55,401 nt of DNA from Dehalococcoidia bacterium (GTDB lineage: Bacteria; Chloroflexota; Dehalococcoidia; Tepidiformales; Tepidiformaceae): the NCBI GenBank assembly GCA_034431815.1, contig DAOUCS010000132.1:1-55401 (forward strand), read 5' to 3'. Below are positions 9,436 through 49,580 of the stretch, in pieces (positions within the stretch are counted from its first letter, which is position 1; the number at the start of each line of letters is the position of its first letter). The position numbers were made by a program, and so were the translations under genes. Under the pieces are notes generated by a model. The model had not been told where the DNA came from and did not search any database. It was given only the letters and a program-made list of their open reading frames with translations.

Positions 9436-9465
9436 CTGACAGGCGGGGAAGCCCGGGGCTAGAAT
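9436..9465 (+). promoter_or_regulatory. Sigma-70-like promoter for glgC (CTGACA-N18-TAGAAT)
   Basis: CTGACA at 9436..9441, 18-nt spacer, TAGAAT at 9460..9465, about 29 nt before the glgC ATG. It shares the 9-mer TAGAATCGG with the promoter at 43112. Confidence 0.4.
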
Positions 9466-9493
9466 CGGGGCAGACCCCCGCACCGGAGCAGCC

Positions 9494-13169: not shown

Positions 13170-13172
13170 GGG

Positions 13173-14192: not shown

Positions 14193-14231
14193 GCCTCCCA
14201 GTGTACGCGCCGCCGCCCCCTGCCGGCCCGT

Positions 14232-16782: not shown

Positions 16783-16917
16783 TCCACTTCCTCCTTTGTC
16801 CGGCTGGGGTCGCGCCGCACGCCGGCCGGAGGCCTACGGCCGGCGAATCGCGTCCCAATTGTCGTTCTGGCGGCCGAAGGGCGTCAAGGTCGTTCGGTCG
16901 ACCGAAAACGACATCGG

Positions 16918-18816
16918 TCAGCGGACCACTGCAGGAGACGGCTCCGTCACAGACGGGGCGAAGCGCTCGACCACCCGGATCGCGGCGGGCGCAACCTCGC
17001 GGCACGCACCGCAGCGGACGCACAGCTCATCGTCGATCGTCCACCGCTCGTGGGTCTCGACGATGGCATCCGTGGGGCAGATCTCCGCCGCCTCGTGGAG
17101 CGAAGGATCGGCCTGGTTGGCGATTTCGTAGCGGATGAGCCCGCTCAACACTCCCGCGGGATCGCGCTTCTCGCGGATCACCGTTTCGAACTCGTCCCGG
17201 AAGTAGCGGAGGGCGAGCTTGACGGTCGTGAGGGCGAACTGGCCGTGGAGGCAGTTCGACCATACGAGGGTGCGCGTGAGCTCCTCGAGCTTCTCGAGGT
17301 CGCTCTCGCGCCCGCCCCCAGCGGCCATGCGGCGGAGGATCTCGACGGCGCGCTGGGTCCCGCCGTGACACGTGGTGCACCGTCCGCACGACTCGTCCTC
17401 GGCAAAGCCGACGAAGTACGTGCAAAGGTCGACGACGCTGGTGTGCTGGTCGAAGAAGATGATGCCGCCGGAGCCGAGGAACATCCCCCGCTCGCGGTAC
17501 GGGTCCAGAGCGACCGGGAGGTCGATTTCCGAGGCGGGGAGGATGCCCGAGAGCGGCCCGCCCGGCTGGAATCCTTTCAGGACGCTGCCGTCGCGCATGC
17601 CCCCGCCGTACTGTTCGAGGAGCCGGCGGACAGTGTAGCCGAAGGGGATCTCGATGCAGCCCATCTGCTTGATGGCGCCGCTCAGGGTGAACATCTTCGT
17701 CCCCTTGTCCTTCGCGTCGGAGACGCCGCTCCACCACCCGGCACCGTGGCGAAGGATGAGGGGAGCGTTCGCGTAGGATTCGACGTTGTTCACGTTCGTG
17801 GGCTTGTTCCACAGGCCGGCCTGGGCTGGGAACGGCGGCTTGATGCGCGGCATGCCCCGGTAGCCGTCGATGGAGGACATGAGCCCGGTCTCCTCGCCGC
17901 AGACGTAGGAACCGGCGCCGCGGAAGACGATGAGGTCGAAGTCGAGGCCGGAGCCGCAGATGTTCGTCCCCAAGAGCCCGCGCTCGTACGCCTGGGCGAC
18001 GGCCGTTTTCATCCGCTGGAAGGCGAGGGGATATTCGTAGCGGATATAGATGTACCCCTCGCGCGCCCCGGTCGCTTTGGCGGCGATGAGCATCCCCTCG
18101 ATGATGAGCTGCGGGTCGCTCTCCATCAGGATGCGGTTCACCCACGCGCCGGGGTCTCCTTCGTCGGCGTTACAGACGAGGTATTTCGGCTCGGCCGTGG
18201 CCGTGCGGAGGAAGTCCCACTTGCGCCCGGTGGGGAAGCCGCCACCGCCACGCCCGCCGAGGCCGCTGTCGAGCACTTCCTTGATGATCTCCTCGGGCGC
18301 GCGTTCGAGGGCGTTGGCGAATCCTTCGTACCCGCCCCGGGCGAGGTAGTGGTCGATGTTCTCCGGGTCGATGACGCCGCAGTTCGCCATGAGGCGGCGC
18401 ACCTGGCCCTGCATGAACGGGTGCTCTGCCAGCGGGACGATGCCTTCGTTAGAGACCCCCTCGACGACGGCGATGGCGAGCTCAGGGAGTTCCTCGCCGG
18501 CAATGAGCACACGGCGAACGAACTCCTCGGCCCGGTCGGGGGTGACGTTGCCGTAGAGGATGGTGCGCGTCCCGCCGGCGGTGCGGACCGTGACGGTAGG
18601 CTCCATCCAGCAGAAGCCCCACGAGCCGATGATGCCGATATCCGCATCGATCCCCTCGCGAGCGGCGGTCTCGCGAATGATGCGCAGGGTCTCGTCGGCG
18701 CCGCGAGCGAGGGACGAGGTATCGATGCAGACGTTCACCTTCGGGCGGCCGTTGGCGAGCCAGGCGTCATACGCCTCGCGGGCGCGGGCGATGAGCGATT
18801 GCAGGGCGGCGTTCAT
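16918..18816 (-). CDS. NuoF/HoxF/FdsB-like NAD(H)-binding FMN flavoprotein with extra N-terminal Trx-like domain and C-terminal ferredoxin-type 4Fe-4S motif
   Basis: Internal ATG 18816 of track ORF 16918..19053. GLGGRGGGGFPTGRKW, ADEGDPGAW, ESCGRCTTCHGG (N3-type cluster). C-terminal CVRCGACREVAP ... CP. Confidence 0.88.
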   Translation of the reverse strand: MNAALQSLIARAREAYDAWLANGRPKVNVCIDTSSLARGADETLRIIRETAAREGIDADIGIIGSWGFCWMEPTVTVRTAGGTRTILYGNVTPDRAEEFVRRVLIAGEELPELAIAVVEGVSNEGIVPLAEHPFMQGQVRRLMANCGVIDPENIDHYLARGGYEGFANALERAPEEIIKEVLDSGLGGRGGGGFPTGRKWDFLRTATAEPKYLVCNADEGDPGAWVNRILMESDPQLIIEGMLIAAKATGAREGYIYIRYEYPLAFQRMKTAVAQAYERGLLGTNICGSGLDFDLIVFRGAGSYVCGEETGLMSSIDGYRGMPRIKPPFPAQAGLWNKPTNVNNVESYANAPLILRHGAGWWSGVSDAKDKGTKMFTLSGAIKQMGCIEIPFGYTVRRLLEQYGGGMRDGSVLKGFQPGGPLSGILPASEIDLPVALDPYRERGMFLGSGGIIFFDQHTSVVDLCTYFVGFAEDESCGRCTTCHGGTQRAVEILRRMAAGGGRESDLEKLEELTRTLVWSNCLHGQFALTTVKLALRYFRDEFETVIREKRDPAGVLSGLIRYEIANQADPSLHEAAEICPTDAIVETHERWTIDDELCVRCGACREVAPAAIRVVERFAPSVTEPSPAVVR

Positions 18817-19289
18817 GCTCCCTCCCGAATGCGGCGGGCCAGGCGGATGGCGTCGGCCACGGTGAGTTTGCCGACGACTTTCCCGTTCACCCACACCTGG
18901 GGGGCTTCGCTGCAGGTGCCGTTGCACTGACCGAGGTGGAGCGCGTAGCGGCCGTCCTCGCTGTGGCCCCCGAGGGGCAGGCCGAGCGTGTGCTCGAGCG
19001 CCTCCCGAATGCGGTCGCCGCCGAGAATACGGCACGTCGGCCCGCTGCACCATGCGATTTCGGTTTGCGCAGGAGGGTGCGTCCGGAATTCGGCGTAGAA
19101 AGACATCGCCCCGTAAACGAGGGCGGGCGTGGTATTCAGCTGCCGGGCGATGACCTCGATGGCTCGCCGGGGGATGTAGCCGTACGTGTCCTGGACCTTG
19201 TGGAGCGCGGGGAGCAGATGGCCGCGGTTCGGGCGGAATTCGGAGACGAGCTGGCGCAGCTCTTCGAGGGACGGCTCGGCGGCAGCCAT
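18813..19289 (-). CDS. NuoE/HoxE/FdsG-like thioredoxin-like [2Fe-2S] subunit
   Basis: 158 aa. Cys pattern WCSGPTC ... CNGTC (C-x4-C ... C-x3-C). ATGA overlap with the NuoF-like gene. Confidence 0.88.
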   Translation of the reverse strand: MAAAEPSLEELRQLVSEFRPNRGHLLPALHKVQDTYGYIPRRAIEVIARQLNTTPALVYGAMSFYAEFRTHPPAQTEIAWCSGPTCRILGGDRIREALEHTLGLPLGGHSEDGRYALHLGQCNGTCSEAPQVWVNGKVVGKLTVADAIRLARRIREGA

Positions 19290-19318: not shown

Positions 19319-19348
19319 ACTATATCGAGGCGCCTCGGCGGGCAGCAA
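19319..19348 (-). promoter_or_regulatory. Sigma-70-like promoter for the nuoE/F-like pair (TTGCTG-N18-TATAGT)
   Basis: Minus strand: TTGCTG (19348..19343), 18-nt spacer, TATAGT (19324..19319) overlapping the stop of the upstream oxidoreductase gene, 30 nt before the nuoE-like ATG. GGGAGG SD. Locally AT-rich in a GC-rich context. Confidence 0.4.
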
Positions 19349-20645
19349 CCGCGCGGGCGTCTTCATCCATGATGGCAGCGGCCCGCTCGCCGAGGAGCAG
19401 GGAGTAGTTCTGGCCGCGGTCCTCGGGGTAGATCTGCGTGGTGTTCGCAAGGTAGAGCCCCTGGACCCCGGTGCGGATATCGGGGATGGACCGCGAGTAG
19501 TTCGTGGTGATGATGGGCTGGCCGCCGGGATCGGTAAAGAACCAGAGGTCGCGAATCCAGGAGCGCTCGAAGCGGGGATTGATCGTGCGGATGCCTGGCA
19601 GGTAGAGCTCGAGCACCTCTTCGGCCCGCATCTGGAGGACGGGATGGTCGGGACGGACGTAGTTGGAGAGGTAGACGATGTGGTTCCCGCCGTAGTCCTC
19701 GGGCCGCATGAAGTTGGTGTGCTCGATGCAGGCTACGAACTTCAGGTCGTCGGCGATGCTCAGCCAGTAGATGTCGGTCAAGGGACGGTCGAGCGCCAGC
19801 ACGAGGCAGGTCGCCCATTGGTACCGGACCCGGTCGAGGATCGCGGCGTAATCGGGCGGAAGGTCGGGCGCGATCTTCCGCGTGATGATGTTCGGCGTGG
19901 TCATCAGCACCTGGTCGAACTCCCACAGCCGGCCCGCGGCGCGAATGCCGCGCACCTGACCGTTTTGGACGGCGACCCGTTCGACCGGCGTGGAAAGGTA
20001 GATAGTGCCTCCGCGCTCGACGATGCGGTCGGCCAGGGCCTGATAGTAGCGCCGGAACGAGCCTTCGAGATAGCCGAGCGCTTCGCGGCTGCCCTTCCGC
20101 GACGCAAAGCGGAGGTAAATCTTCCCCCACAGCCAGGCCATGCTCACCTCGTCGGCGTAATCGGCGAACTTCCCCCGGAGGAGGGGACCCCAGAAGGCGT
20201 CGTACGCCTTCCGGCCCACCGCCCGCATCATCCACTCCTTGGCGGTCACGGCCTCGTACTTCCGCCAGTTCTTCTGACGCCGTAGGTAGAGCGCCACGAG
20301 GCCGAGGCGGATCCGGCTTGTGAGCGGCACGGCGGTGAAACGGAGGAGGTCGAGCGGGGTCACGAACGGATAGATGCGCCCGCGGACGAGGTGGGCGTTG
20401 CGCGGCTCGATCCAGCGAAGGTACGGCTCGAGCCCCAGCTCCCGGATGTAGCGGACGACGGTGGTGTCGCTGGTGAAGAGGTGGTGGTAGAAGCACTCGA
20501 GCGGCGTTCCGCCCACCGGGAAGGTGACCACCTGACCCCCCACCTCGTGCCTCCCTTCGAAGATGGTGACCTGATGACCGCGCTCCTGGAGGACCTTGGC
20601 AGCAGCAAGGCCGCACACGCCTGCTCCGACGATGCCGATCTTCAT
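19320..20645 (-). CDS. FAD/NAD(P)-dependent oxidoreductase (amine-oxidase / CrtI / HemY-like fold)
   Basis: Internal ATG 20645. MKIGIVGAGVCGLAAAKVL..VTIFEGRHEVGGQ dinucleotide-binding motif. 441 aa. ATGA overlap with the upstream gene. Confidence 0.8.
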   Translation of the reverse strand: MKIGIVGAGVCGLAAAKVLQERGHQVTIFEGRHEVGGQVVTFPVGGTPLECFYHHLFTSDTTVVRYIRELGLEPYLRWIEPRNAHLVRGRIYPFVTPLDLLRFTAVPLTSRIRLGLVALYLRRQKNWRKYEAVTAKEWMMRAVGRKAYDAFWGPLLRGKFADYADEVSMAWLWGKIYLRFASRKGSREALGYLEGSFRRYYQALADRIVERGGTIYLSTPVERVAVQNGQVRGIRAAGRLWEFDQVLMTTPNIITRKIAPDLPPDYAAILDRVRYQWATCLVLALDRPLTDIYWLSIADDLKFVACIEHTNFMRPEDYGGNHIVYLSNYVRPDHPVLQMRAEEVLELYLPGIRTINPRFERSWIRDLWFFTDPGGQPIITTNYSRSIPDIRTGVQGLYLANTTQIYPEDRGQNYSLLLGERAAAIMDEDARAVAARRGASI

Positions 20646-21682
20646 GGAACCGGGGCCCTCTCCTCCGCTGGTGCTTCGGGGCGCATCACCCTGGCGAACG
20701 AAACGCCGAACGACCAGAGGAACAGCAGCCCGAGCACCGTGGTGGGGATGAAGATGACCGCATGGGCGAGGATGGAGTACGCCCCCGCAGGACCGTTGGC
20801 CACGCCTGCCCCGACGAGCACCAGCGTGGCCGCCCATTCGAACGGCCCCGTGCCGCCGAAGAAGGTGGGGAGGATGATCGCGAGGTTCGCAGCGGCAAGG
20901 AGCAGCACGTAGTGCCCGAAGTTCACCTCATCCGCGCCGAATCCGAAACCCAGGCCGATGATTGCGTACGCAGCGGCCTCGACAGTCCACCCCGCGATGC
21001 TCAGCAAGACGACCGCGCCGAGGGTACGCACGTCGTGCACGGAGCGGAGGCTCACCAGCAAGTTTTCGGCCACTTCTTCTGCGCGGTGCTCGAAGCGCCG
21101 CGGCAGGAGCCGGACGAGCAATCGCACCGTCCTCCGGGCACGGGCCTCGGAGAGGGTGAGGGCGTAGAAACCCGCGAGCACAACAGCGAACAGCCCAGCC
21201 GAAGCGACGGCGATGAGGTCGAGCCGGCGATCGTTGAATCCCACGGCAGCGCCGGCCCCGACGAAGAGCAGCACGAGCGTGGTGCCATCGAAGAGGCGCT
21301 CGACGGCGATGCTGCCGAGGGCGCCGACCTTCGAGATGCGCTCGCGGTCCCCGAGAACGTAGGCGCGGACGAGCTCTCCCGCGCGGGCAGGCAGGAGGTT
21401 GTTGGCCATGTAGCCGATAATCGCGTAGGTGAAAAGCCGCGGGGGCGCGATCGGCGCTACCGGCCGGAGGAGAATCGACCACCGGACGACTCGAATCGTG
21501 AGGGCGACAAAGAGCACGCCGATGGCAGGCGCCATGTACCAGTAGTTCACCTGCGAGAGCGCCTCGGCGAGCTCCCGGGGATGGATGGCGCGAAGGAAGA
21601 GCGCGATCAGCACCGCGCTGACGGCAAGCGCTGCCCAGAATCGGATGGACCGGAACAACGGCGCTCCTCGCGGGGGCTTCAA
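20642..21682 (-). CDS. Flippase-like / lysyl-PG-synthase-TM-region (UPF0104) integral membrane protein
   Basis: 346 aa, multi-TM. R/K-rich loops and NLLPARAGELVR are typical of the PF03706-type family (from memory). TTG start overlaps the upstream stop (TTGA). Confidence 0.72.
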   Translation of the reverse strand: MKPPRGAPLFRSIRFWAALAVSAVLIALFLRAIHPRELAEALSQVNYWYMAPAIGVLFVALTIRVVRWSILLRPVAPIAPPRLFTYAIIGYMANNLLPARAGELVRAYVLGDRERISKVGALGSIAVERLFDGTTLVLLFVGAGAAVGFNDRRLDLIAVASAGLFAVVLAGFYALTLSEARARRTVRLLVRLLPRRFEHRAEEVAENLLVSLRSVHDVRTLGAVVLLSIAGWTVEAAAYAIIGLGFGFGADEVNFGHYVLLLAAANLAIILPTFFGGTGPFEWAATLVLVGAGVANGPAGAYSILAHAVIFIPTTVLGLLFLWSFGVSFARVMRPEAPAEERAPVP

Positions 21683-24600
21683 TCGATGGCGAAGCCCCGG
21701 ACGCGGCTGGTCCCGCTTTCGACTACCCAGAGTCTACCATCGGCTCCCGTTACGAGACCGTAGGGAGACCGCATCGGGTCGCCATCGGGAGCGAGCGTCG
21801 CCAGCACACGGCCGTCGGCGCTGTAAATCCGCACCTCGTTACGGCTTGGAAGAGAAACGGCGATCCGGCCGCCGGCCAAGATGGCGAGGTACGGCTTGTC
21901 GAGTGCGTCCGTGCCGCCCCATCCGTCGACGGGGAACTCGCGGAGATAGCTGCCGTCGGCCGCGAGGACCTGCACGCGAGCATTGAACATGTCGGCGACG
22001 TACACCGTCCCGTCCGGGGCAATGGCGATGCCGACCGGCTCGTCGAACTGACCGGGCCCCCGCCCCGATCCTCCGACAGCCCGGATCGGCGTGCCGTCGG
22101 GGGCGAAGATTATGATGCGGTCGTGGCCGGTGTCGGTCACCCAAAGGTTGCCGGCCGGGTCGAAGGCGGCGTCCCGCGGGCCGAACAGCTCGTCGAGGGG
22201 CGGGGGCTGGGCACCGCCGGGAGCTCGTCCGAATTGGCGGAGGGGACGGAGGCCGGTGTCGAAGACGCGGACGGTCCAACCGAACGTGTCGGCAACCACC
22301 ACCTCGCCGTTCGGCCCCACCGCGAGGCCCCACGGCTCGGAAGCTTCCCCGGGTTCGCCGCGCACATCGACCGCACCGAGGAACCCCCCCTCGCGGTCGA
22401 ACTTCTGGAGCTTCCGGGTCACCCGGTCGATCACGTAGAAGTTGCCGTCGGTATCGGTTGCGATGTCGACGGGCGCGAGGAACTGGCCCGCGCCCGCGCC
22501 CGGCTGTCCGAAGACGGGCCTCCCTTCGCTGTCGGCGCTGGGCTCAGGCGGCGGAGCGGGAAGGAGCCGGAGAAGGCCCGTCTCGCGGTCGTAGCTGGAG
22601 GGGAAGAACGCGTACGCATCGACGGACCCAGGCGCACGAAGCGGCTCGTGGTCGCGCCAGAAGCGGTACCAAGTCGGCAGCCATTCGCCGGCGAACACGC
22701 CCCGAACGATGCGTTTCCAGGTGTCGAAACTCCAAGGCCCGCCGGGAAGGGCCGCCTTGTAGTCCTCGGGGAACCACCAGCGATGCGGGTACCGCTGCGG
22801 GGCGGCGAACTCCTGGATCCGGGGACCGAGAGCGTCAGTGACCTTCGACGCATTCCGTTCGGCGACGAGGATGACGCGGAAGTCGCCCGGGGGCAGCCCA
22901 TTGGAGAAATCGGCGTAACTGACCCGCCGGTAATCGCGGAGGTACCAGGCCCAGGGCCAGGCGAACGAGTCCGTCGTGTCGACGGCGATAGGAAGGTCGT
23001 ACCCGAGGCCGGTCGCACGGGCGAGGGCGGAGATGTCCGCGGCAAGGTCCGGGATGGCAGGGCTGGACTGGGTGTAGATGAGGAGGTCCTTCGGCACGTC
23101 GCCGCGTTCGAACGTGACGCCGACCATCGTCCGCAAGGAGAACGGCAGCAGCCCACCAACGAGCACGGCAGCAGCGGCGAGGGGAAAGGCACCGCGCCAC
23201 CAGGAGCGGGCTGCGGCTGCACCAGCAACAATCCCCGCCGCGCCGACCACAGCCCTCACGAGGGCACCGACGGAGCCCCCCAGCGGCAGGTAGACCAGCA
23301 CGAGCGCCGTCCCGGCTGCCACGAGCCCGACGCTCACGAACGAAGCCAGCGGCGGCCGGTTCGTGGCCGCCCGATCGAGTGCCTGCTGCAGGCTCCACGC
23401 CGCGAGGAGCGCCACCGGAAGGGCAATGTGGACGTTGAGCCAGGGCATCTTTTCGCCCGCCCAGGAGAGCGCGCCCCAGATGCCGACGACCCAGAACACG
23501 AGGAAGCGGGAGAACCCATCGCCCCGGGTCACGGCCCACCAGCCGCCGAAGAGCGCTAGAGACAGGGTGAGGAATTCGTAGGCGGGCATCAGCATGGTGT
23601 AGTAGAACCACGGCTGGTTTCCCCGGCGAACGTCGTGCTGCGTGATCCAGTAGTCGAGGGAGCCCCAGGGCCCGGAGCACAGCCCGCCGAGGTTCGTCCA
23701 GAAGGTCGTCATGAGCGTGAGGTAGAGGAGCGCCGCCAAGCTGGCTCCGATAAGCCAGGTGCGCGGCCGCCAGGCGAGCCCGACCCACGCAGCGGCGCCG
23801 ACCAGCAAAGCGTACGTTCCCCCGAGGATGAGGACGTTCTGGCGCGCGGTCGCGCCGGCGGCCTGACACACCGCCGGCCACTGAAGCTGGCCGGGTTGGG
23901 CCAGTGCGCGCTCGAGGGGCTCGCGGAGCACTGGCGCGAGGAGCGGCACCGTGAGCGTCCCGAGCACCACCAGCAGGTCACCGGCGCGGGGAAGGGCGGT
24001 CCACCCGGCCCAGCGGCGGAGGCGTTCGGCTGCCGGCCAGACGGCCGCGAGGGCCCAGGCGTAGGGGAAGAGCGCCGCCGTCAGCACCGCACGGTCGATA
24101 CGGGAGCCCGCAGGCCGGACCGCCACGGCTTCCCGCGCGAGCTCAGCAGCGAGCGCCGCATTCAGGAAGAGCAGGAAGATGGCGACGACGAGGTAGGTGG
24201 CTTCTTTCGTCGCGTGGGCCGCCGCGGCGGCGACGGCAAACACCACCAGCCAGCGGTCGCCCCCGCCCGCCAGGTACCGCCACATGGCGATGACCATGGC
24301 GAGGGTGAACACCGCCAGGTAGATGTCCTCCCGGAAGAAGCGGGAGAAGTAGACGAGGGTCGGCGAGAGCGAGATGAACGCGCACGCCGCAAAGGTCCCT
24401 GCGGGCCCCAGCCACCGGCGGAGTGCAAGAGGCATCGCCATAAGGGCGATGCCGAAGAAGGCTGCGGACAGCCGAGACGTGTAATCGCTCGCACCGAACA
24501 GCAGGAAGACGAACGCCTGTACGTGGTAGTAGAGCGGGCCGTGGAACACCGGGTTGTGTTCGTAGCCGCCGCGGAGGAGATCCCACGACCACTGCGCGTG

Positions 24601-24771
24601 GATGCTTTCGTCGTGATGCAGGGCGCGCGAGCCCAGGTCCCACAGGCGGAGGAGGGCGCCTGCAGCGAACACGGCAGCGTACGCGGCCGCTTCGCGCCTG
24701 AAGCGGAGGACGGCGCGAGAGGGCGCAGCATCCTCAGCGGGCCGCGCAGCCCGGGCAGCCTCGAGCGTCAC
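21679..24771 (-). CDS. TIGR03663-like GT-C-type membrane protein fused to a C-terminal six-bladed NHL beta-propeller
   Basis: N-terminal polytopic region with LHHDESIHAQWSW (acidic first-loop motif), PVFHGPLYYH, and a PMT_2/ArnT-like layout. Six NHL-like blades at the C-terminus (about 21682..22488). I prefer GTG 24771 (GTGA overlap with the upstream stop; GAGG 8 nt upstream) over the track ATG 24840, which would overlap the upstream gene by 73 nt. Confidence 0.8.
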   Translation of the reverse strand: MTLEAARAARPAEDAAPSRAVLRFRREAAAYAAVFAAGALLRLWDLGSRALHHDESIHAQWSWDLLRGGYEHNPVFHGPLYYHVQAFVFLLFGASDYTSRLSAAFFGIALMAMPLALRRWLGPAGTFAACAFISLSPTLVYFSRFFREDIYLAVFTLAMVIAMWRYLAGGGDRWLVVFAVAAAAAHATKEATYLVVAIFLLFLNAALAAELAREAVAVRPAGSRIDRAVLTAALFPYAWALAAVWPAAERLRRWAGWTALPRAGDLLVVLGTLTVPLLAPVLREPLERALAQPGQLQWPAVCQAAGATARQNVLILGGTYALLVGAAAWVGLAWRPRTWLIGASLAALLYLTLMTTFWTNLGGLCSGPWGSLDYWITQHDVRRGNQPWFYYTMLMPAYEFLTLSLALFGGWWAVTRGDGFSRFLVFWVVGIWGALSWAGEKMPWLNVHIALPVALLAAWSLQQALDRAATNRPPLASFVSVGLVAAGTALVLVYLPLGGSVGALVRAVVGAAGIVAGAAAARSWWRGAFPLAAAAVLVGGLLPFSLRTMVGVTFERGDVPKDLLIYTQSSPAIPDLAADISALARATGLGYDLPIAVDTTDSFAWPWAWYLRDYRRVSYADFSNGLPPGDFRVILVAERNASKVTDALGPRIQEFAAPQRYPHRWWFPEDYKAALPGGPWSFDTWKRIVRGVFAGEWLPTWYRFWRDHEPLRAPGSVDAYAFFPSSYDRETGLLRLLPAPPPEPSADSEGRPVFGQPGAGAGQFLAPVDIATDTDGNFYVIDRVTRKLQKFDREGGFLGAVDVRGEPGEASEPWGLAVGPNGEVVVADTFGWTVRVFDTGLRPLRQFGRAPGGAQPPPLDELFGPRDAAFDPAGNLWVTDTGHDRIIIFAPDGTPIRAVGGSGRGPGQFDEPVGIAIAPDGTVYVADMFNARVQVLAADGSYLREFPVDGWGGTDALDKPYLAILAGGRIAVSLPSRNEVRIYSADGRVLATLAPDGDPMRSPYGLVTGADGRLWVVESGTSRVRGFAID

Positions 24772-26411
24772 GGTGACGGCCTCGCGAACACCGAGATGGG
24801 GATGTCGCGGGAGGGGTGCGCGTTCCGGCTGGCAAGCCATCTGAGAACTGCCCGGATGCTCTCCGGAGGCTCCGTGAGGCGCAGGAAAGCCCAGGAGCCG
24901 TCGATGGCGAGAAAGCCGTCCGGCGCGGGTGTCCCTCCGGGAGCGAGGTACACGGAGGCGTCGCCCGGGGGACGGTCAGCGATGAGGATGGTGCCGGAGC
25001 GCCGCAAAGGCCATACCACCTCGTCGGCGAGGTCGGGGTGCACGGCAATTCGTCCCCGGCCCCCCGCGAGCTCGACGGCGGCGGCACGAATCACCCGTCC
25101 CTGGTCGGTTGCCGCCGGCGAATAGAGCGGCTCGGGGGCACCAGGCGCAGCCGCGCGGCCGGTCATGGCCGCGAGCCACAGGAAGCCCAAGGCAGCCGGC
25201 GCGAGGAAAGCGGCTGGCCGCGTGGGCGGCGAGGATGCGAGGAGCGCAGCCATGGCCGCGGCTCCGCCGGCGAGGAGCACCGCGAGGAGCGCGCTCCCGT
25301 TCGGGCGCCCGAAGGCCCACCCGAAGGCGAACAACCCCGCCGACGCAGCCGTCACGCCGGCGGCAGCGAGCGGCGGAGCGGCCGTGCGCCACTCGGCGCC
25401 GCGAAGGCCCTCCCACAAGAGAGGCGCTGCCACGCCGGCGAGGAGGGCCGCGGGTAGCGAGACGGCGGGTATCGCCGCCCACGCGTGCGAGCCCGCACCT
25501 GCGAGGAGCCAGACCAGACCGACCCCGCCCCAGGCGAGCGCCAAGCGCTGCCAGAGCGGAGGCGCCTCGGCACCCCGAGCCCAGCGGGCGAGGATCCAGG
25601 CTGCCGAAGCACCGCCGGCGGCGAGAACCGGCCAGCTGTAGAGAAGGGCAAGCTGGGCGGCGGCGCCCGTCGACCAGTCGGCATCGAGGGAGTCGGCGAA
25701 GAGGTCAGCCGGGGGCACCGCGAGGCCGACCCATCGGAATCCATACCCAGCGCTTGCCGCTGCGATCCCGGCGGCAGCTCCCGCGGCTGCGAGCGCCACC
25801 GTCAGCGGCCGGGGATACTGACCCTGCGCCAGCCGGGACGCGAGCACGGCGAACGCCAGCAGAAGCGGCAACGGCCCGCACACCGCAACCGCCGCGACGA
25901 GGAGGGGCCACACCCACGCCGCCGCAGGGGGCCTCACAATGACCGCGAACAGCAGCAAGGCGATGGGAACATCGAGCGCGAGGGCCGAGGCGGTACCGCC
26001 GCTCGCAGCATGAAACGGGTCGAGGGCCACGAGCACCCCGGCCGCGAGGAGCGGCCCGTCGCCGGTGACCGGCCGAAGCCGAAGGGCCGCAATCGCCAAC
26101 ACCGCGGCGCCGAGGAGCGCGAGCGCGAGCCGCGCCGGCACCGGGGAATCGGTGAAGGCGAAGGTTGCGGCGGCTGCTCCTTGCGCGAGGGAACCGGCGA
26201 AGCGTGGGTCGTCGGCCCCGGCCTGAGCTGCCCATGCCCCGGAGAGGCTCCAAAGTTCGGCACCGGCGACGGGCGCGTTCAGTACCACGCCCAGACGAAC
26301 GGCCCCGTACAGCACCGCCACGCCGGCCCACCCGAGGGCCGCGAGCGGAACCGTGATCGAGCCCTCACGTCGATCGGCGGCGGCGAGCAGAACGGGGCGA
26401 GGCATCGGCAT
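24768..26411 (-). CDS. Orphan Ala/Gly/Leu-rich polytopic membrane protein with a soluble C-terminal tail of about 110 aa
   Basis: Internal ATG 26411 (GGAG 5 nt upstream; ATG 26405 is an alternative) of track ORF 24768..27176. Many hydrophobic segments, W-rich loops. No family recognised by eye. Confidence 0.55.
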   Translation of the reverse strand: MPMPRPVLLAAADRREGSITVPLAALGWAGVAVLYGAVRLGVVLNAPVAGAELWSLSGAWAAQAGADDPRFAGSLAQGAAAATFAFTDSPVPARLALALLGAAVLAIAALRLRPVTGDGPLLAAGVLVALDPFHAASGGTASALALDVPIALLLFAVIVRPPAAAWVWPLLVAAVAVCGPLPLLLAFAVLASRLAQGQYPRPLTVALAAAGAAAGIAAASAGYGFRWVGLAVPPADLFADSLDADWSTGAAAQLALLYSWPVLAAGGASAAWILARWARGAEAPPLWQRLALAWGGVGLVWLLAGAGSHAWAAIPAVSLPAALLAGVAAPLLWEGLRGAEWRTAAPPLAAAGVTAASAGLFAFGWAFGRPNGSALLAVLLAGGAAAMAALLASSPPTRPAAFLAPAALGFLWLAAMTGRAAAPGAPEPLYSPAATDQGRVIRAAAVELAGGRGRIAVHPDLADEVVWPLRRSGTILIADRPPGDASVYLAPGGTPAPDGFLAIDGSWAFLRLTEPPESIRAVLRWLASRNAHPSRDIPISVFARPSP

Positions 26412-26500
26412 GGGCGCTCCGAAGCGGCCGAGCGGGCTTCCAGCTCGCCGGTATCGCACGGAGCATATCGCCGGCCGGCGGCGCGGACGAGTCGGAGCGT

Positions 26501-28900
26501 TCAGGATGTGGGAAGCTCCCGCTCCACGGGGACGCGGAAGAGCTGAACGGTGCCGTCGTCGTAGACGGTCACCAGGAAGTCCTCGAATCGGGGCATGAGG
26601 TCGGCAGGGTACCGGCTGCGCTCCACAGGCCCGACCACGACGTACTCGGCCCGGAGGCGGCGGAGGCGTTCGAGCGCGGTTGCGGCATCGGGGGCGAGGT
26701 AAACGCCGTCCACCAGCTCTTGGCGGGAGGAGAGGAGCCGGTGGTTCGCTTGCGAATCGCCGCGCCACTGGAGCTCGTGGAAGTACCAGCCGATGGGCGT
26801 CGGACGGCCGGTGCGGGCGGCGATGCGACCCGCATCGGTGTAGTCGACGTTCGCGGAAACGAGCTCGGGGCCCGAGTCCCCCTTCCTCCAGGTACGACCC
26901 GTCGCCTCGACGACGACTGCGCCAGGCGGAACGTAATGCTGGACGGCCTGGAGGAGCGCCCACTCTCCGGGAGACGCTTGGGCCAGGAAGGCGAGACCGT
27001 CGAGAGCCGTCGGCCCTCTGAATCCGTCGGTCCGGTTCGGGAGCGCGGCAATAGGGTAGACGAGTCCAGCAGCAGCCAGCAGAGCCGCCGGGGCCACCGC
27101 CAGGCGAAGCGCCGGACGGCGGCTCGCGAGGACAGCCACGGCCCCCGTGGCTCCAGCGAGCGACAGAAGCAGCCAAGCCTGGTACGAGAGCTTGAACACC
27201 GTGTTCATCCGCGGGGCGCTGCCCGCGAACACGTCGCGGATGTAGAAGAGTTCGGCACCGTAGAGGAGCAGAAAACCGCCGGCTGCGAGGGCTGCGGCAG
27301 CGGCCTCCGCGATACGGCGGGCGCGCGAAAGCGCTACGGCTGCCATGGCAGAGACGGCCGCGCCATAGGCGAGGATACTAAGGGTGAAAAACCCCCCGGC
27401 GGTGCGGGCACGAATAGCCGCTTCGAATTCTCCCCGCGCCAGCGTGAACACCACCCACACGGCGAGCGGGAGCACGAGCAGAGCCAGACCGACGGCGAAG
27501 GCTCCGCGGATCGGAGCGGTGCGCGCACGGGCAGCGAGGACGATGCTGCCCGTCATCGCCGCGACAGCGATCGGTCCGAACTGCAGGAGCGCGTGGGCAG
27601 GCTGGGTGCCCGGGCCCACGTACGGCTGGAGACCGGAGGCTTGCGACCGGAAATCGAGCCACCACGGGAGGTAGGCCAAAAGCCCTGCCCCGGTGACGAC
27701 GAGGAACCACGCCGCCGCCAGCGGCCCATCGCGCGGGCGGACGATGAGCGTCCGGCCCACGGCCGCGGCGCCCACCAGGAGCACGAACGTGATGACGTCC
27801 CAAGCGTTCAGGAAGGCGAGGCCGCCCAGCACGAGGGCCACCACCGCGAGCCGGAAGCCTTCCGCGGGGGCTACGCGGCCGCGGGCGGGCAGCGGACGCC
27901 GGCTCCGCCAGAAGGCGAGTGCAAGGGCCACAGCGAGGAGGTTCGCCGGAAGCGCCATGAGATGCGGGTGTAAGTCGCCGAGCAGGAAGCTGAAGAAAGG
28001 GAACTCCGTGATCGTCGCAGGGATGACACGGGTGCCCCGCCACCACCACCAGAACTCCGTAGGGTACCAGGCCGACGTGCGGGCCGCGTCGGGATAGCAG
28101 CGCTCGGTTTGGCCGGGAGCGCACGGCAGGAGCCATTCGAGCCCGAACGCCTCGAAGAGGCCGGCGTGCGTTCGCCCATGCGCAGCAGCCACCTCGAAGG
28201 GAGCAGAGAGCGACCCAACGAACAGGAGCAGCAGGACGGCAGCGGCGCCAGCGGCAGCGATTGGCCAGCTTCGGCGGCGCCCGAGCACGCCGCGAGCCAG
28301 GGCGGCGGCCACGCTCACCGCGCCCGTAAGCACGGCGCCGAACACGGCGGCCAGCCCAAGGTTGTAACCGACGGAGGAGGGGACGCCGGCTGCCTGCGTC
28401 AGCAGGCCGATTTGCAGGTAGCCGAAGTAGTAGTAGCTCGCGGCGTGTCCGGCGAGCCATGGGTCCTCGGGCGGGTACGACGGGGAAGCAACAGCCGCGT
28501 TCAGGTAGAGGAAGTCCATCGGCTGTTCGGTGCCCTGGATCTCCGGGACGTACGACCGGAAGGCCGCGTAGGCAAGGAAGGCGCTGGTGAAGAGCGCTAG
28601 CATCGCCCAGATGGCCCGGGACGCCCGGCGGAGACCGGAGCGGGCTTGCGGGTTGAGGCCCCAGGCGGCGGCGCCGGCGAGCCCGAGCAGGACGAGGGCG
28701 ATGAGTGCGCCCCCGCGTCCGAAGGGGAGCACGGAGGCCACGCGGAGGAGGAAGTAGCCCCATCCGGCGAGCATCAGCCCCAAGGGGAGCGCAAGCCCAG
28801 CGCCGCCGTCGGGAAAGCGGCGGAAGACGAGCAGCGCAATGGGGTAGGCGAACGCGGCGGTGCCGACTGCTGCGGCCCAGAACGCCAGCACGTCGGCCAC
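26501..28900 (-). CDS. DUF2298 / TIGR03662 'Chlor_Arch_YYY' giant membrane protein
   Basis: 799 aa, polytopic. GTEQPMDFLYLNAAVASPSYPPEDPWLAGHAASYYYFGY matches the remembered PMDF...PP.DPW...YYYxG family signature. GTG start 9 nt after the ftsY stop (GGTGAGG SD). Confidence 0.8.
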   Translation of the reverse strand: MADVLAFWAAAVGTAAFAYPIALLVFRRFPDGGAGLALPLGLMLAGWGYFLLRVASVLPFGRGGALIALVLLGLAGAAAWGLNPQARSGLRRASRAIWAMLALFTSAFLAYAAFRSYVPEIQGTEQPMDFLYLNAAVASPSYPPEDPWLAGHAASYYYFGYLQIGLLTQAAGVPSSVGYNLGLAAVFGAVLTGAVSVAAALARGVLGRRRSWPIAAAGAAAVLLLLFVGSLSAPFEVAAAHGRTHAGLFEAFGLEWLLPCAPGQTERCYPDAARTSAWYPTEFWWWWRGTRVIPATITEFPFFSFLLGDLHPHLMALPANLLAVALALAFWRSRRPLPARGRVAPAEGFRLAVVALVLGGLAFLNAWDVITFVLLVGAAAVGRTLIVRPRDGPLAAAWFLVVTGAGLLAYLPWWLDFRSQASGLQPYVGPGTQPAHALLQFGPIAVAAMTGSIVLAARARTAPIRGAFAVGLALLVLPLAVWVVFTLARGEFEAAIRARTAGGFFTLSILAYGAAVSAMAAVALSRARRIAEAAAAALAAGGFLLLYGAELFYIRDVFAGSAPRMNTVFKLSYQAWLLLSLAGATGAVAVLASRRPALRLAVAPAALLAAAGLVYPIAALPNRTDGFRGPTALDGLAFLAQASPGEWALLQAVQHYVPPGAVVVEATGRTWRKGDSGPELVSANVDYTDAGRIAARTGRPTPIGWYFHELQWRGDSQANHRLLSSRQELVDGVYLAPDAATALERLRRLRAEYVVVGPVERSRYPADLMPRFEDFLVTVYDDGTVQLFRVPVERELPTS

Positions 28901-28909
28901 CGCCTCACC

Positions 28910-29908
28910 TCAGGGCAAGATGGCGCCCACGAACTCGCGCGCGTCGAAGGGCGCGAGGTCGTCGATCCCCTCACCCGTGCCGATGAAGCGGACGGGAAGG
29001 CCGAGGTCGTGGGCGATGGCGAAGGCGATGCCCCCTTTTGCGGTGCCGTCGAGCTTCGTAAGCACGATGCCGGTAACGCCGACGGCCCCGGTAAACGTGC
29101 GCGCCTGGGCGAGGCCGTTCTGTCCCGTGGTGGCATCGAGGACGAGAAGCACCTCGTGAGGCGCGTCGGGGATGCGCCGCTGCACCACCCGGGCCACCTT
29201 CCGGAGCTCCTCCATCAGGTTGGTCTTGGTGTGGAGACGCCCGGCGGTATCGATGATGACGACATCAGCCCCGTCGGCTTGCGCCGCGGCGACCGCGTCG
29301 AAGGCGACGGCGCCGGGGTCGGAGCCCGGCTGCTGGGCGACGAGGCGGACGCCGACGCGCTCGGCCCAGACGCGGAGCTGGTCGATGGCCGCGGCCCGGA
29401 ACGTATCCGCTGCACCGAGGACGACCTTCGCGCCATCCCGCTGAAAGGCCCGCGCCAGCTTGCCGATGGTCGTGGTCTTGCCCGACCCATTCACCCCGAC
29501 GACCAGGATGACGAGCGGCGACGGCGTATCAGGAAGGGCCCAAGCCGGGGGGCGCCGAGCGGGCGCTTCGAGGACGGAAACCATCTCCTGGCGCAGAAGC
29601 TCGCGGACTCCGGCGGCGTCCTTCACGCTTTCAGCTTTCGCACGCTGACGGACGCGAGCGAGGAGGTCGCTGGCCGTGGCCGTGCCGGTGTCGGCGAGGA
29701 TGAGGATCTCCTCCAGTTCCTCCCAAAGGGATTCGTCGAACTGGGGGCGAGCGAAGACTTCGGCGAGGCGGCCGAGGATGCCGCGGCGGCTGCGGTCAGT
29801 GGCGCGCTCCGTCTGCTCATGGATCTCGCGGCGCTCGTCGGCCGTGAGCTCCAGCACCCCGACCTGGGATGTGTCCGCGCCTTCGGACTTCCTGCGCCAG
29901 AACCGCAC
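28910..29908 (-). CDS. ftsY: Signal recognition particle receptor FtsY
   Basis: Start set at GTG 29908 (AGGAGG + 6 nt) inside track ORF 28910..30211. [25 protein letters not shown]. Confidence 0.9.
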
Positions 29909-29954: not shown

Positions 29955-32900
29955 TCAGCGTTCCAGGTGGGCGGGGAGGTCGGCCAAGCGGAGGGAAAGC
30001 ACCTTCGAGACGCCGTCGGGCCCCATGGAAATGCCGTAGATGGCATCGGCGGCTTCGACGGTGCGGCGGTTGTGGGTGACGACGAGGAACTGCGTGCGTT
30101 CGGCAAGTCGCCGGAGGGCAGCCGTGAACCGGCCGATGTTCGCCTCGTCGAGGGCGGCGTCCACCTCGTCGAGCACGCAGAAGGGCGCCGGGTTGACAGT
30201 GAGGAGCGCAAAGAGCAACGCCACAGCCGTGAGGGAGCGTTCGCCGCCGGAGAGCGCGGCGAGGCTGTTGACGCGCTTACCGGGCGGCTGAGCCTCGATC
30301 TCGATTCCCGATTCGGCCGGGCGCTCGGGGTCGGTCAGCACGAGCCTCGCCGAACCACCGCCGAAGAAATCGGCGAAGAAGCGGCCGAACGAGTCGTTCA
30401 CGGCATCGAAGGCTGACTGGAAGCGCGTCCGAATCTGCTCGTTCAGTTCGTCGATGGCGGTGCGGAGCTGCTGTTCGGCTTCGCGCAGGTCGGTCATCTG
30501 GGCCGTCAGGAATTCGTACCGCTCGCGAGTCTCGCGGTAGTCTTCCGGCGCCTCCTGGTTGATGGGACCGAGCCTCCGGATGCGCCGGCGGACGTCCTCG
30601 ATGCGGCTGCGGAGCTCCTCCGTGCTGACGTGGGCAGCACCATGGATAGAGCGCCCTCCGCCGCTGTTCGCCTCGGCCAGCGTGACGACCTGACCCGAAG
30701 GCGCGGCGACGAGACCTTCGGCCTCCATCTCGGTCCGGAGCGTTCGGATCCGCTCCTCCCACCGGGCGATGTCCGACTCCAGCCCGAGCCGGCGGCGCTG
30801 CACCTCGAGGAGCGCTGCTTGGGCCTCAGACAGCTCATCCTGCACCTGGCGTTCGTGGTGCTCGAGGCGGTCGAGCTCATCCCGGTCGGGGGCCACGTCG
30901 TCGGCGAACCGCTGCTTTTCGGCGCGGATGAGCTCGATTTCGCGCTGAAGCTTGGCAATGCGCTCCTGAGCGACCTGAGCCTCGAGTTCGAGGTTCTTCG
31001 CCTGGAGCCGGCGGGCGGCGAGCTGACTGTCGAGCCGCTCGATGGCCCTTTCGTGCTGTTCTCGCATGAGCCGGAGCGCGTGCCGCTCGCCTTCGATGGC
31101 CGCAAGGCGGCTCGATGCCTCGGAGACGGCACGGAGTGCGGCATCGCGGCGGGCCGCAGCGCGGGCGAGCTCCTCCTCCAAGGTGCGGAGGTCAGCCTCC
31201 CGCGCCTGGCGGCGCTCTACGGCCTGAGCCGCAGCCTGCCGAGCCTGGTCGATCCGCCGGAGAAGCGACTCCCGCTCGCGGGCGATATCGCCCCGTTTCG
31301 AGAGGAGGGCCTGCATTTCCCGGCGGATGCGGTGGAGGCGCTCGCGCTCGCGGGCGAGGTTCGCCTGGGCAGCCTCCGCCTCGCGGCGAAGCTCCTGGTA
31401 ACGCGCGTCGGCCTCGCGCGCCTCGGCGGCCAGCCGCTCGATGGAGTGCCGGGCAGCCGCGATCTGCTGTTCGATCACGCTCGTGCGCTTGCGAAGCTCC
31501 TCGATCCGCGCAGGGAGCTCCTCCAACTCGCGCTGGCGAGCGAGCACCGAATCGTCCGAGGGCGAACCGCCCGTAATGGCGCCGCTCGGCTCGAAGAGGG
31601 TGCCGTCGAGGGTGACGACCGTCCCGAGGGCTCGGCGAAGGATGCGGAGCGCGTTGGGCGTGTCTTCGACGACGATCACCCGGCCGAGGAGCGTATCGAC
31701 CAGGGGCCGTACGGCAGGCTCGCAGCGAACGAGCCGCGCCGCTACGCCGACGACTCCGCGCTCCTTCTGAAGGTTCAGGGGGTAGACGTGTCGGATGGCG
31801 TCGAGGGGGAGGAACTGCGCGCGGCCGCCGTTCCGCTGCGCGAGCAGCCGGATCGCCTCCAGCGCGTCGGCGTGGCGTTCGATGACCACAGCGTGGAGGC
31901 GATGTTCGAGGGCCGCGTTGATAGCCGCCTCGAGGCCGGCGGGGACGCGCAGCTGGCGAGCCAGGATGCCGAGGACTCCCGGCACCTCGGGGGGTTCGCC
32001 GAGGCTCCCCGGCGCGATGCCCTCGATGAGGGCCTGACCCATGATGAGCACGTTGCGCGTGCCCTGGGCGATTCCCTCGTGCTCAGCATGCACCCGCTGG
32101 AGCGCCTCAAGACGGCCTTCGAGACGGTCGAGCTCGCGGAGCTCCTGGCTGCCAGCCGCTTCGAAGACACGCACCTCCTCTTCCACGCGAGCGAGGCGCT
32201 CGCGGACCGCCTCGGCTTCGCGGAGCGCGCGGGCGAGGTTATCGCCGACGGCGACTGCTGCCTCGGAGAGCTCGCGAAACCGCCGCCCGTAGCCGATGAG
32301 CTCCACGAGGAGCTGCTTGCGGCGGGCGAGGAGGTCGGCTTCCTCGCGTTCGAGGGCCGCCAGCCGGCTTTCCGCTGCCTGGACGTCGGCCTCGCTGGCC
32401 CTGATGCGCCGGTCGTCGGCCTCGGCTCCGGCGCGGAACTCCTGAAGCCGTCCGCGGAGGGCCGCGAACTCGCGCTCGGCGAGCTCCAGGGATTCGCGGG
32501 CGTCGGCGAGGGCGGCTTTCCGCGCCTCCACTTCGTCGGCCAAGGCAAGGCCGCGGCGGCTCTCGTCGACGTCGGCGGTCGAAAGGGAGAGCCGCTCCGC
32601 TTCGAGGGCCTCCAGCTCGAGGCGAAGCTCCTCGCGCCGGGCTGCCAGCATCCCCAGCCGCTCACGGTCGAGCGAAAGGGCGCGTTCGGTCTCCGCGAGC
32701 CGCTTGTCCAGGCCGGACTGCGCGGCGTCGCGACGGGCGATGGCCTCGCGGCGGCGGCGAATCTCCTCGCCGCGGGCGCGGAGCTGGCCGCGGAGCCGCT
32801 CGAGCCGCTGGGCGGCGGCCGCCTCTTCAGCCACGCACTGGTCGAGGGCGGCGCGGCTGCGGACAAGGGCATGTTGCGCCTCGTTCCAGAGCTGGCCGTA

Positions 32901-49369: not shown

Positions 49370-49580
49370 CGGCGCGGGATCCGACGCGCGAAGGCTGGTA
49401 CCGCTCTCCGCCCGCGCCATACGCCCACCCCCGTGCGGGGCAGATGCGCCGGGCGGTCGGCCATGGGACGGCTTCGCGAGCATTGCCCGCCTCGTATGCC
49501 CCGCCACCGCAGCCGCAACGGCTGCACCGTGGGACGATATCAGGGCTCGCCCAGGGCGTCAACCGTCAGGAAGGAGCACG

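Follow-up and report, generated by a model that had tools for sequence, protein, structure and literature searches.

A conserved gene cluster behind ftsY in Dehalococcoidia as a candidate extracytoplasmic glycosylation system with lipid-linked sugar donors

Introduction

What is the function of five closely packed membrane and redox genes that directly follow ftsY, the gene of the signal recognition particle (SRP) receptor, in a bacterium of the class Dehalococcoidia? This question is raised by a 55,401-nt stretch of a Dehalococcoidia bacterium (GenBank assembly GCA_034431815.1, contig DAOUCS010000132.1; the whole stretch is referred to as the window), in which the genes G1 to G5 extend the housekeeping array rnc-smc-ftsY found in Dehalococcoidia. 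We give a slightly better than even chance to the reading that this cluster is an extracytoplasmic glycosylation system of the three-component type, which would use a polyprenyl-phosphate-sugar donor whose synthase gene would lie at another place in the genome.

The original prediction, derived from the sequence of the window, had described an uncharacterised, self-contained machine for lipid-carrier-dependent glycosylation shared by Chloroflexi and Archaea. Extracytoplasmic glycosylation on a lipid carrier fits (i) three proteins with a predicted GT-C glycosyltransferase fold, (ii) a membrane protein of the MprF type and (iii) a flavoenzyme whose family is found in polyprenyl-phosphate-sugar clusters. 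On present evidence, the system is neither uncharacterised at the family level, nor self-contained, nor, at the haloarchaeal loci examined, shared with Archaea as a module. All of its families have existing annotations, and the general logic of the system is an established one. In the literature searched, we found no description of the Dehalococcoidia arrangement of ftsY, YYY, Agl23-like, PF03706 and PRK07233 genes, no GT-C assignment of DUF2298 or of the G2 protein, and no report of a recurrent PRK07233-flippase pairing in lipid-linked-sugar clusters.

Results

Gene products of the module

The module consists of the following genes, G3 being given as a whole and by its two parts:

26501..28900, minus strand: G1, YYY/DUF2298 polytopic membrane protein of 799 amino acids (aa), TIGR03662 and PF10060
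24768..26411, minus strand: G2, protein of 547 aa outside all Pfam and NCBIfam families, with a GT-C fold in its AlphaFold2 (AF2) model
21679..24771, minus strand: G3, whole protein of 1030 aa, TIGR03663, PMT_2 and NHL
22525..24771, minus strand: membrane part of G3 (residues ~1-749), Agl23-like (TIGR03663), putative GT-C/PMT_2
21679..22524, minus strand: C-terminal six-bladed NHL beta-propeller of G3 (residues ~750-1030), from the NHL profile hidden Markov model (HMM) and matches in the PDB
20642..21682, minus strand: G4, PF03706/UPF0104 membrane protein of 346 aa (PplT, MprF-flippase type), PF03706 and TIGR00374
19320..20645, minus strand: G5, flavin adenine dinucleotide (FAD) oxidoreductase of the PRK07233 family (amine-oxidase/CrtI fold) of 441 aa, NF005560 and PF01593

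At a window G+C content of ~70%, spurious open reading frames (ORFs) are plentiful. We consider the five ORFs of the module to be real because their translations are stop-free, their third-position G+C is high and four of them score above curated family cut-offs. ORF translation confirmed the five co-directional genes at the coordinates originally predicted, and the motifs quoted with them (PMDF, PPEDPW, ASYYYFGY, LHHDESIHAQW and GAGVCG as the GxGxxG motif) were all found in the translations. Scans of the Pfam and NCBIfam HMM libraries at curated cut-offs gave matches above these cut-offs for TIGR03662, TIGR03663, PF03706, PF01593 and NHL. The source NCBI record annotates identical products of 799 and 547 aa; exact-product look-ups of G3, G5 and the G1 of the window returned no record.

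Three membrane proteins with a predicted GT-C fold

G1 matches TIGR03662 with 439 bits (cut-off 300.25) over profile positions 5-726 of 727 and PF10060 (Chlor_Arch_YYY, DUF2298) with 317 bits (cut-off 27.8). Its YYYxG signature is the motif ASYYYFGY at residues 154-161, in which Y156, Y158 and G160 are invariant in 81/81 orthologues, as are the acidic residues D129 and D146. The AF2 model of G1 has a predicted local distance difference test (pLDDT) value of 75.6 and a predicted template modelling score (pTM) of 0.82. Searched against the PDB with Foldseek, it gave four matches with E<1e-3, all to GT-C enzymes, namely the C-mannosyltransferase DPY19 (three entries) and the arabinofuranosyltransferase AftA, with PglB and the C-terminal globular domain of AglB lower in the list. 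Crude hydropathy and the positive-inside rule place the acidic YYY loop (residues 115-176) and the C-terminal domain outside the cell. The model thus suggests a GT-C fold with an extracytoplasmic C-terminal domain. A profile comparison of G1 with G3 revealed no detectable sequence relationship (2.4%), so that the GT-C assignment of G1 derives entirely from the model. Thousands of relatives exist (6140 clusters at 50% identity match G1); the named clusters from a search of cluster representatives with G1 belong to Dehalococcoidia and Chloroflexales only, and plasmid records gave no match to G1. For DUF2298/YYY, a large family without assigned function, placement in the GT-C fold would provide a testable function, as would its adjacency and natural fusion to PMT_2/Agl23-type proteins.

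G3 scores 249.7 bits on TIGR03663 (cut-off 126.25) and 31.9 bits on PMT_2, the two HMMs from which its putative GT-C assignment is taken. Its HHDESIHA loop carries an aspartate-glutamate (DE) pair (D54/E55) and is invariant in 58/58 sequences. BLASTP similarity to archaeal Agl23 is confined to residues 38-200, over which G3 and the Halogeometricum protein are 34% identical with the DE pair aligned. Agl23_C (PF26681), a domain on record for haloarchaeal members of the family, is not among the Pfam matches of G3, the presence of PF26681 in the Pfam copy used being unconfirmed. For the C-terminal part, three lines agree with the predicted fusion of a TIGR03663-like protein to a six-bladed propeller: the NHL HMM (84.4 bits), six blades readable in residues ~760-1030, and PDB matches to the six-bladed NHL domains of TRIM71 and Thin (E 1e-38 to 8e-47). 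This propeller may serve as an acceptor-binding domain.

G2 had been labelled an orphan, a label that we can now replace. Searches of Pfam and NCBIfam gave no match, and only 11 database homologues exist, all without Pfam domains; the two that are source-named both bear the label Dehalococcoidia. The AF2 model of G2 (pLDDT 69.5, pTM 0.70) yielded ArnT as top Foldseek match (E 1.3e-5, template modelling (TM) score 0.53), then ALG12 and STT3, with ALG9, AglB, Pmt4, PglB, EmbB and PimE as further matches. All eight matches with E<1e-3 are GT-C enzymes, and the list contains GT-C proteins only down to rank 20, one weak match at rank 15 being the only one of ranks 9-20 under a probability of 0.93. 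Profiles built from orthologue alignments of the loci were compared with hhalign. G2 aligned to the membrane domain of G3 (E 6.4e-5, probability 64%) over 441 collinear columns, and the controls were negative (G2 vs G1 4.7%, G2 vs G4 0.2%). From the alignment of the G2 motif PV-G-x-E-L-x-x-L-S-G-A-W on the G3 motif HHDESIHAQWSW we conclude that G2 has lost the Asp of the DE pair and kept the Glu. Residue E52 of G2 is invariant in 66/66 sequences and D68 in 64/66. By its model, G2 appears to be a cryptic third GT-C-fold protein of the cluster, and the profile alignment indicates that it is probably a shortened, diverged Agl23-like paralogue.

Two features of these proteins support the glycosylation reading. 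The significant structural matches of G1 and G2 are almost all GT-C enzymes with polyprenyl-phosphate-sugar donors, and invariant acidic residues lie in predicted outward loops of G1, G2 and G3, an orientation taken from the positive-inside rule only.

A different reading centres on translocation: G3 would mainly be a scramblase or flippase of lipid-linked glycans, maybe together with G4, and only G1 and/or G2 would be transferases. It draws on the current NCBIfam name of TIGR03663, 'flippase activity-associated protein Agl23', and on experiments that make the original statement that no member is experimentally characterised outdated. Purified Haloarcula hispanica Agl23 translocates Man5GlcNAc2-PP-lipid (M5GN2-PP-lipid) in liposomes and rescues yeast lacking Rft1 by suppressing the rft1 deletion (Chen et al. 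2024, PMC11182771). An earlier genetic study, as reported in that paper, treats the protein as a putative hexose-phosphate-dolichol flippase in N- and O-glycan synthesis (Lu et al. 2020, via PMC11182771). Nevertheless, we rate this reading as unlikely for the Dehalococcoidia cluster. G3 keeps the invariant DE pair in its HHDESIHA loop, and a DE pair in such a loop is typical of PMT-type GT-C transferases. The extracytoplasmic propeller of G3 resembles acceptor-binding domains of other GT-C enzymes, two dedicated flippases per operon would be redundant, and flipping and transfer can coexist in one protein.

A candidate flippase and a flavoenzyme with recurrent context

In the glycosylation reading, G4 is, by analogy, the candidate translocator of the lipid-linked donor. 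It matches PF03706 with 161 bits over profile positions 2-302 of 302 and TIGR00374 with 83 bits (cut-off 43.2). In the loci mapped it always lies between G3 and G5. Archaeal PF03706 proteins have been predicted to be glycosylation flippases (Makarova, Galperin and Koonin 2015, PMC5898192). Their conserved neighbourhood, arCOG00899 (PF03706)-arCOG00563 (PMT/STT3-like)-arCOG00897 (AglD-like GT2), is like the module in that PF03706 adjoins a PMT-like protein, but a GT2 synthase belongs to it, and neither DUF2298 nor the flavoenzyme does (PMC5898192). Characterised bacterial PF03706 proteins move head-group-modified membrane lipids, the studied links being lysyl-phosphatidylglycerol (Lys-PG), glucosaminyl-phosphatidylglycerol (GlcN-PG), the C. 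difficile HexSDF glycolipid and ClsB. G4 shares PF03706 over its full length with the MprF flippase domain, PplT (E. coli YbhN) and P. aeruginosa GpgF; these are tied to aminoacyl- or glucosaminyl-phosphatidylglycerol or cardiolipin synthesis, whereas the partners of G4 are GT-C proteins and a flavoenzyme.

G5 scores 493 bits on NF005560 (PRK07233; cut-off 252) and 121 bits on PF01593 (Amino_oxidase). GAGVCG occupies residues 7-12, with the three glycines conserved in 51/51 sequences, and we infer a soluble, cytoplasmic flavoenzyme. Identification of G5 as HpnE, CrtI or protoporphyrinogen oxidase was rejected, all scores being below the cut-offs; HpnE (89.7 bits) and the phytoene desaturases are nevertheless its nearest named relatives. 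Compared by sequence with solved structures, G5 has weak relatives among generic flavoenzymes, and no solved structure matching the membrane parts of G1, G3 or G4 was found in this way.

Full-length G5 homologues (31-37% identity) were obtained by tblastn from plasmid and chromid records. Those of Burkholderia stagnalis, Rhizobium tumorigenes and Rhodobacteraceae SC52 score 503-548 bits on NF005560 and are 31-33% identical to G5 over 96% of its length. The three replicons share the order UbiA-type prenyltransferase, DprE1-like, DprE2-like, SDR/epimerase, PRK07233 and GtrA (L090 2500-8739; L091 2510-8700; L092 2499-8666). The UbiA-family protein is related to decaprenyl-phosphate phosphoribosyltransferase, and the DprE1-like FAD oxidase (319 bits) and the DprE2-like SDR protein (192 bits) both score below their own cut-offs. 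In two of the three (L090, L092), the PRK07233 gene overlaps the GtrA gene that follows it. The cluster looks like a decaprenyl-phospho-arabinose (DPA)-type donor pathway with an extra flavoenzyme step. Near GtrA there are also hypothetical polytopic proteins without Pfam match and with ~10-11 predicted transmembrane segments (L092 8738-10474; L091 10618-13065).

In the actinomycete Embleya (Actinomycetota), a DegT aminotransferase gene and a GT2 gene immediately precede the PRK07233 homologue. The same stretch (Embleya sp., L093 6732-15267), unannotated in its record, also holds a class-III-aminotransferase-like ORF and two GMC oxidoreductases.

The PRK07233 family thus recurs in lipid-linked-sugar donor pathways; in Proteobacteria a small flippase is its immediate neighbour. 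The flippase partner is GtrA there and, in Dehalococcoidia, the PF03706 protein G4, joined to G5 by a conserved ATGA overlap. Because of this family context we propose a more specific target for G5 than the original prediction, which had named a polyprenyl carrier or the acceptor lipid: by analogy, the most likely role of G5 is to modify a sugar linked to polyprenyl phosphate, or the lipid of this donor, ahead of its export. In the literature searched, no function is reported for these proteobacterial PRK07233 proteins, and the link of the family to lipid-linked-sugar pathways in three phyla suggests a donor-tailoring step that has gone unrecognised.

The same two families also bear on the idea that the cluster builds a membrane lipid or lipoglycan and glycosylates no protein. 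G4 would flip a modified lipid or glycolipid, G5 would modify that lipid, and the GT-C proteins would extend a lipid-anchored glycan, resembling PimE, Mpt and Emb of mycobacterial lipomannan and lipoarabinomannan (LM/LAM) synthesis. Every studied PF03706 protein is tied to modified membrane lipids, the structural matches include PimE, EmbB and AftA, and the named proteins closest to G5 have lipophilic isoprenoids as substrates. We find this quite unlikely, since what is known of Agl23 in archaea favours the use of dolichol-phosphate-hexose in protein glycosylation, the proteobacterial context of the G5 family is polyprenyl-phosphate-pentose and not a membrane phospholipid, and the cluster holds no lipid-synthesis gene.

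Conservation of the module across Dehalococcoidia

We scanned a genome collection and kept the best 80 of 203 matches, all of them Dehalococcoidia and most labelled Tepidiformales or Tepidiformaceae; no archaeal or other-class DUF2298 locus was among these best 80. The nearest is 'bacterium HR29' with 87% identity, and the module is also carried by the cultured Tepidiforma flava YIM 72310 (NZ_CP115149, locus L043). After mapping the window proteins onto the 80 loci by tblastn, we found the order smc-ftsY-G1-G2-G3-G4-G5 in every sufficiently long locus. The gene order is beyond chance, given that it is kept in each of these loci and that 4-nt overlaps are conserved.

Two sets of divergent loci define what is essential. 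Marine-type loci (L066, L078, L079, L082), whose G1 is 38-39% identical to that of the window, lack G2 and the NHL domain; L072 also lacks the NHL domain. Three more divergent metagenome contigs (L087, L088, L094; G1 29-33% identical) keep the core order ftsY-DUF2298-TIGR03663-PF03706-PRK07233, with G4 of L088 detected by tblastn. They too lack G2, and the 693-aa and 722-aa G3 orthologues of L087 and L094 lack the propeller. The TIGR03663 proteins of the three contigs have 693-840 aa and score 231-268 bits (L087 268, L088 231), and their PRK07233 proteins score 477-485 bits. The expected conservation of gene order therefore holds across the 80 Dehalococcoidia loci and, for the core, on the three contigs. 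The functional core comprises G1, the membrane part of G3, G4 and G5, and both G2 and the propeller are lineage-specific additions.

The 2572-aa fusion protein encoded by a Chloroflexales-type contig (L089, 10001-20110) comprises PMT_2, two YYY domains and TPR repeats; the gene after it codes for a further YYY protein of 774 aa, and GT4, epimerase and methyltransferase genes are adjacent. Cluster members bear Chloroflexales and Chloroflexia names. From an independent side, the natural fusion indicates that YYY proteins and PMT_2-type GT-C proteins act together.

Gene junctions and extent of the transcription unit

The genes flanking the module in the same direction are:

33591..34301, minus strand: rnc, RNase III gene, 3-nt gap to smc
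29955..33587, minus strand: smc, 46-nt gap to ftsY
28910..29908, minus strand: ftsY, SRP receptor of 332 aa with SRP54 and SRP54_N domains, GTG start and ribosome-binding site AGAGGAGGGG
18813..19289, minus strand: gene of a NuoE-like 2Fe-2S protein (Pfam)
16918..18816, minus strand: NuoF-like gene (Pfam), ATGA overlap with nuoE

The ftsY stop and the GTG start of G1 are separated by 9 nt, which bears out the original observation; 9 nt is also the median across loci, and the distance is <=20 nt in 71/76. Hence ftsY is probably co-transcribed with the module. It adjoins G1 in L087, L088 and L094, even though smc is absent upstream in L087 and L094.

For the junction counts, we took the start nearest to the upstream stop, so that overlap counts refer to an available overlapping start. 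The overlaps GTGA (G2/G3), TTGA (G3/G4) and ATGA (G4/G5) described for the window are all present. A 4-nt overlap occurs at G2/G3, where a GTG start lies over the G2 stop, in 59/63 loci and at G4/G5 in 51/53. The TTGA overlap at G3/G4 is found in the window only (1/56 loci), the relatives having mostly a gap of 5-26 nt, and as it is unique the G4 start may lie slightly downstream. Between G1 and G2 the window has a spacer of 89 nt (26412..26500), whereas 65/68 relatives offer a G2 start with a 4-nt overlap of the G1 stop, and only one of them has the 89-nt gap; this gap is peculiar to the lineage of the window. An in-frame GTG at 26459..26457 is an alternative G2 start. By these sequence criteria, the module genes appear translationally coupled and co-conserved.

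The original prediction had placed a separate promoter at the 3' boundary of the module. We rejected this promoter: only 30 nt lie between the G5 stop and nuoE, and they contain only a GGGAGG ribosome-binding site. A consensus scan detected no promoter-like site in this gap, and the best match by eye reaches 8/12 (TCGATA-16-CACAAT), with its start site inside the ribosome-binding site. Within the intergenic gaps of the array, terminator-like and promoter-like sites occur only after nuoF (16858..16928). By these sequence signals, a transcription unit could span rnc to nuoF, and the 3' boundary after G5 is supported by comparative data and not by a promoter.

The nuoE and nuoF genes follow G5 in about three-quarters of the Tepidiformales loci with a readable downstream flank and also in L087 and L094. 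They are absent after G5 in L088 and in 13 Tepidiformales loci; in these 13, unrelated genes (FabD, FabF, a CoA-transferase, a thioredoxin-TPR protein and a methyltransferase), but no glycosyltransferase, take their place. Their linkage could reflect ancestral synteny or electron supply to G5. They are possibly co-transcribed with the module, and we do not count them as members. After the NuoE/NuoF-like genes of L087 (17120-22228) and L094 (17095-22156), a NuoG/formate-dehydrogenase-like molybdopterin protein is encoded.

These flanks raise the question of whether the whole arrangement is synteny only, five unrelated membrane and redox housekeeping genes having stayed with ftsY and nuoEF by inheritance in one class. 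All sampled full-core loci do appear to be Dehalococcoidia, and ftsY upstream and nuoEF downstream are nearly as conserved as the module. We consider this explanation very improbable for four reasons: (i) 4-nt overlaps are kept over deep divergence; (ii) the core persists while its flanks change, smc being lost in L087 and L094 and nuoEF in the 13 loci and L088; (iii) a PMT_2-YYY fusion exists; and (iv) the flavoenzyme-flippase pairing recurs in other phyla, and an Agl23-GtrA pairing is found in one haloarchaeon.

Comparison with archaeal and bacterial systems

The claim that the system is shared by Chloroflexi and Archaea stands for the families only. At the three haloarchaeal Agl23 loci examined (Halogeometricum pHBOR02, Halobacterium chromosome, Halococcus chromosome), none of the neighbours of Agl23 is a DUF2298, PF03706 or amine-oxidase gene. 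The expectation that archaeal YYY and Agl23 genes are neighbours thus failed as seen from the Agl23 side of these loci. On pHBOR02 of Halogeometricum borinquense (L084 9905-12276), Agl23 overlaps a GtrA-family gene by 4 nt; this pair lies downstream of two GH18 chitinase-family and two PKD-domain genes.

Close archaeal counterparts of the module are the Agl22/Agl23 system of Haloarcula hispanica and the AglD/AglS-type dolichol-phosphate-hexose steps of haloarchaeal N-glycosylation. With Agl23, G3 has TIGR03663 and a PMT_2-type polytopic architecture in common. By analogy, both G3 and haloarchaeal Agl23 would handle lipid-linked sugars on the outer face. Unlike haloarchaeal Agl23 (~570-645 aa), G3 is bacterial, has 1030 aa and bears an NHL propeller, and no Agl22-like GT2 lies near it.

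The bacterial scheme of Kelly et al. 2024 starts with a synthase of the polyprenyl-phosphate-sugar. It further comprises a flippase, whose family varies, a GT-C enzyme equipped with an accessory binding domain, and epimerases or redox enzymes as auxiliary components. We liken the module to the three-component systems GtrA/GtrB/GtrC, ArnC/ArnEF/ArnT and Citrobacter ORF15/ORF14/ORF12 with its auxiliary epimerase, and to the mycobacterial DPA pathway (DprE1/E2, Rv3789, Emb/Aft); these work with a lipid-linked monosaccharide donor, a small flippase and, as an option, redox tailoring of the lipid-linked sugar. As in these systems, a candidate flippase (G4) is encoded together with putative GT-C proteins (G1, G2, G3), and AftA, ArnT and EmbB are among the structures matched by the models of G1 and G2. 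The module differs from them in four respects: the cluster holds no donor synthase; the flippase candidate belongs to PF03706 and not to GtrA/SMR, MATE or ArnEF; there are two to three predicted GT-C proteins in tandem; and the redox enzyme has an amine-oxidase fold (PRK07233) and is not of the DprE1 (FAD_binding_4) or SDR type. With the proteobacterial PRK07233 clusters, the module has the equivalog model of G5 and a flippase-type neighbour in common, whereas their partner is GtrA and donor-synthesis genes are present there.

Discussion

If the cluster is a glycosylation system, its reaction sequence may be as follows. A polyprenyl-phosphate-sugar would be made on the cytoplasmic face by the synthase encoded elsewhere. 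G5 would oxidise or otherwise tailor the lipid-linked sugar or its isoprenoid chain, G4 would move the donor to the outer leaflet, and G1 and G3, with G2 in Tepidiformales, would transfer the sugar to an envelope acceptor. Tepidiforma is described as monoderm, having both peptidoglycan and a tetragonal S-layer; loss of peptidoglycan is reported for the marine Dehalococcoidia radiation. Since the core is also present on marine-metagenome contigs, which we take as Dehalococcoidia, the acceptor is probably an S-layer protein or another surface glycoconjugate and not peptidoglycan.

Several observations weigh against this reading. A donor synthase of the GT2, UbiA or phosphoglycosyl transferase type was looked for in the cluster, among the ORFs scanned across the 55-kb window and after G5 at ten other loci, and none was detected; the system can no longer be called self-contained. 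The biochemistry of Agl23 so far concerns translocation and not transfer (PMC11182771), and the characterised PF03706 proteins handle modified phospholipids or glycolipids and not polyprenyl-phosphate-sugars. The reading as a whole is built on sequence and predicted structure. The AlphaFold and Foldseek comparison proposed with the original prediction did return a GT-C fold for G1 and G2, at moderate model confidence (pLDDT 70-76) and global TM-scores of 0.3-0.55, and the fold call of G3 is HMM-based, without a structural model. Finally, the tight linkage to ftsY and the frequent linkage to nuoEF indicate that the neighbourhood is partly plain synteny.

A broader and more tentative proposal, which we regard as somewhat unlikely to hold in all its parts, is that (i) Dehalococcoidia run an archaeal-type (Agl23/YYY) surface glycosylation, (ii) PRK07233 proteins are an unrecognised class of donor-tailoring flavoenzymes paired with a flippase, and (iii) DUF2298 is a new GT-C family acting with Agl23-type proteins. 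Under this proposal, PRK07233 would act on polyprenyl-phosphate-linked sugars or on the carrier isoprenoid, with PF03706 as the flippase in Dehalococcoidia and GtrA in Proteobacteria. Dehalococcoidia, whose envelopes have an S-layer, abound in the oceans and in the subsurface. A class-wide surface glycosylation would bear on their envelope biology.

Other genes in the window

The only sugar-activation gene seen in the window lies ~8.5 kb from the module:

9440..10783, plus strand: sugar-1-phosphate nucleotidyltransferase with C-terminal hexapeptide-repeat domain

It is encoded on the opposite strand, has no established link to the module and was not adopted as part of the system. Four further ORFs of the window, at 5092..6237 (minus strand), 45729..47363 (minus strand), 48266..49558 (minus strand) and 13170..14381 (plus strand), combine a high third-position G+C with the lack of a Pfam match.

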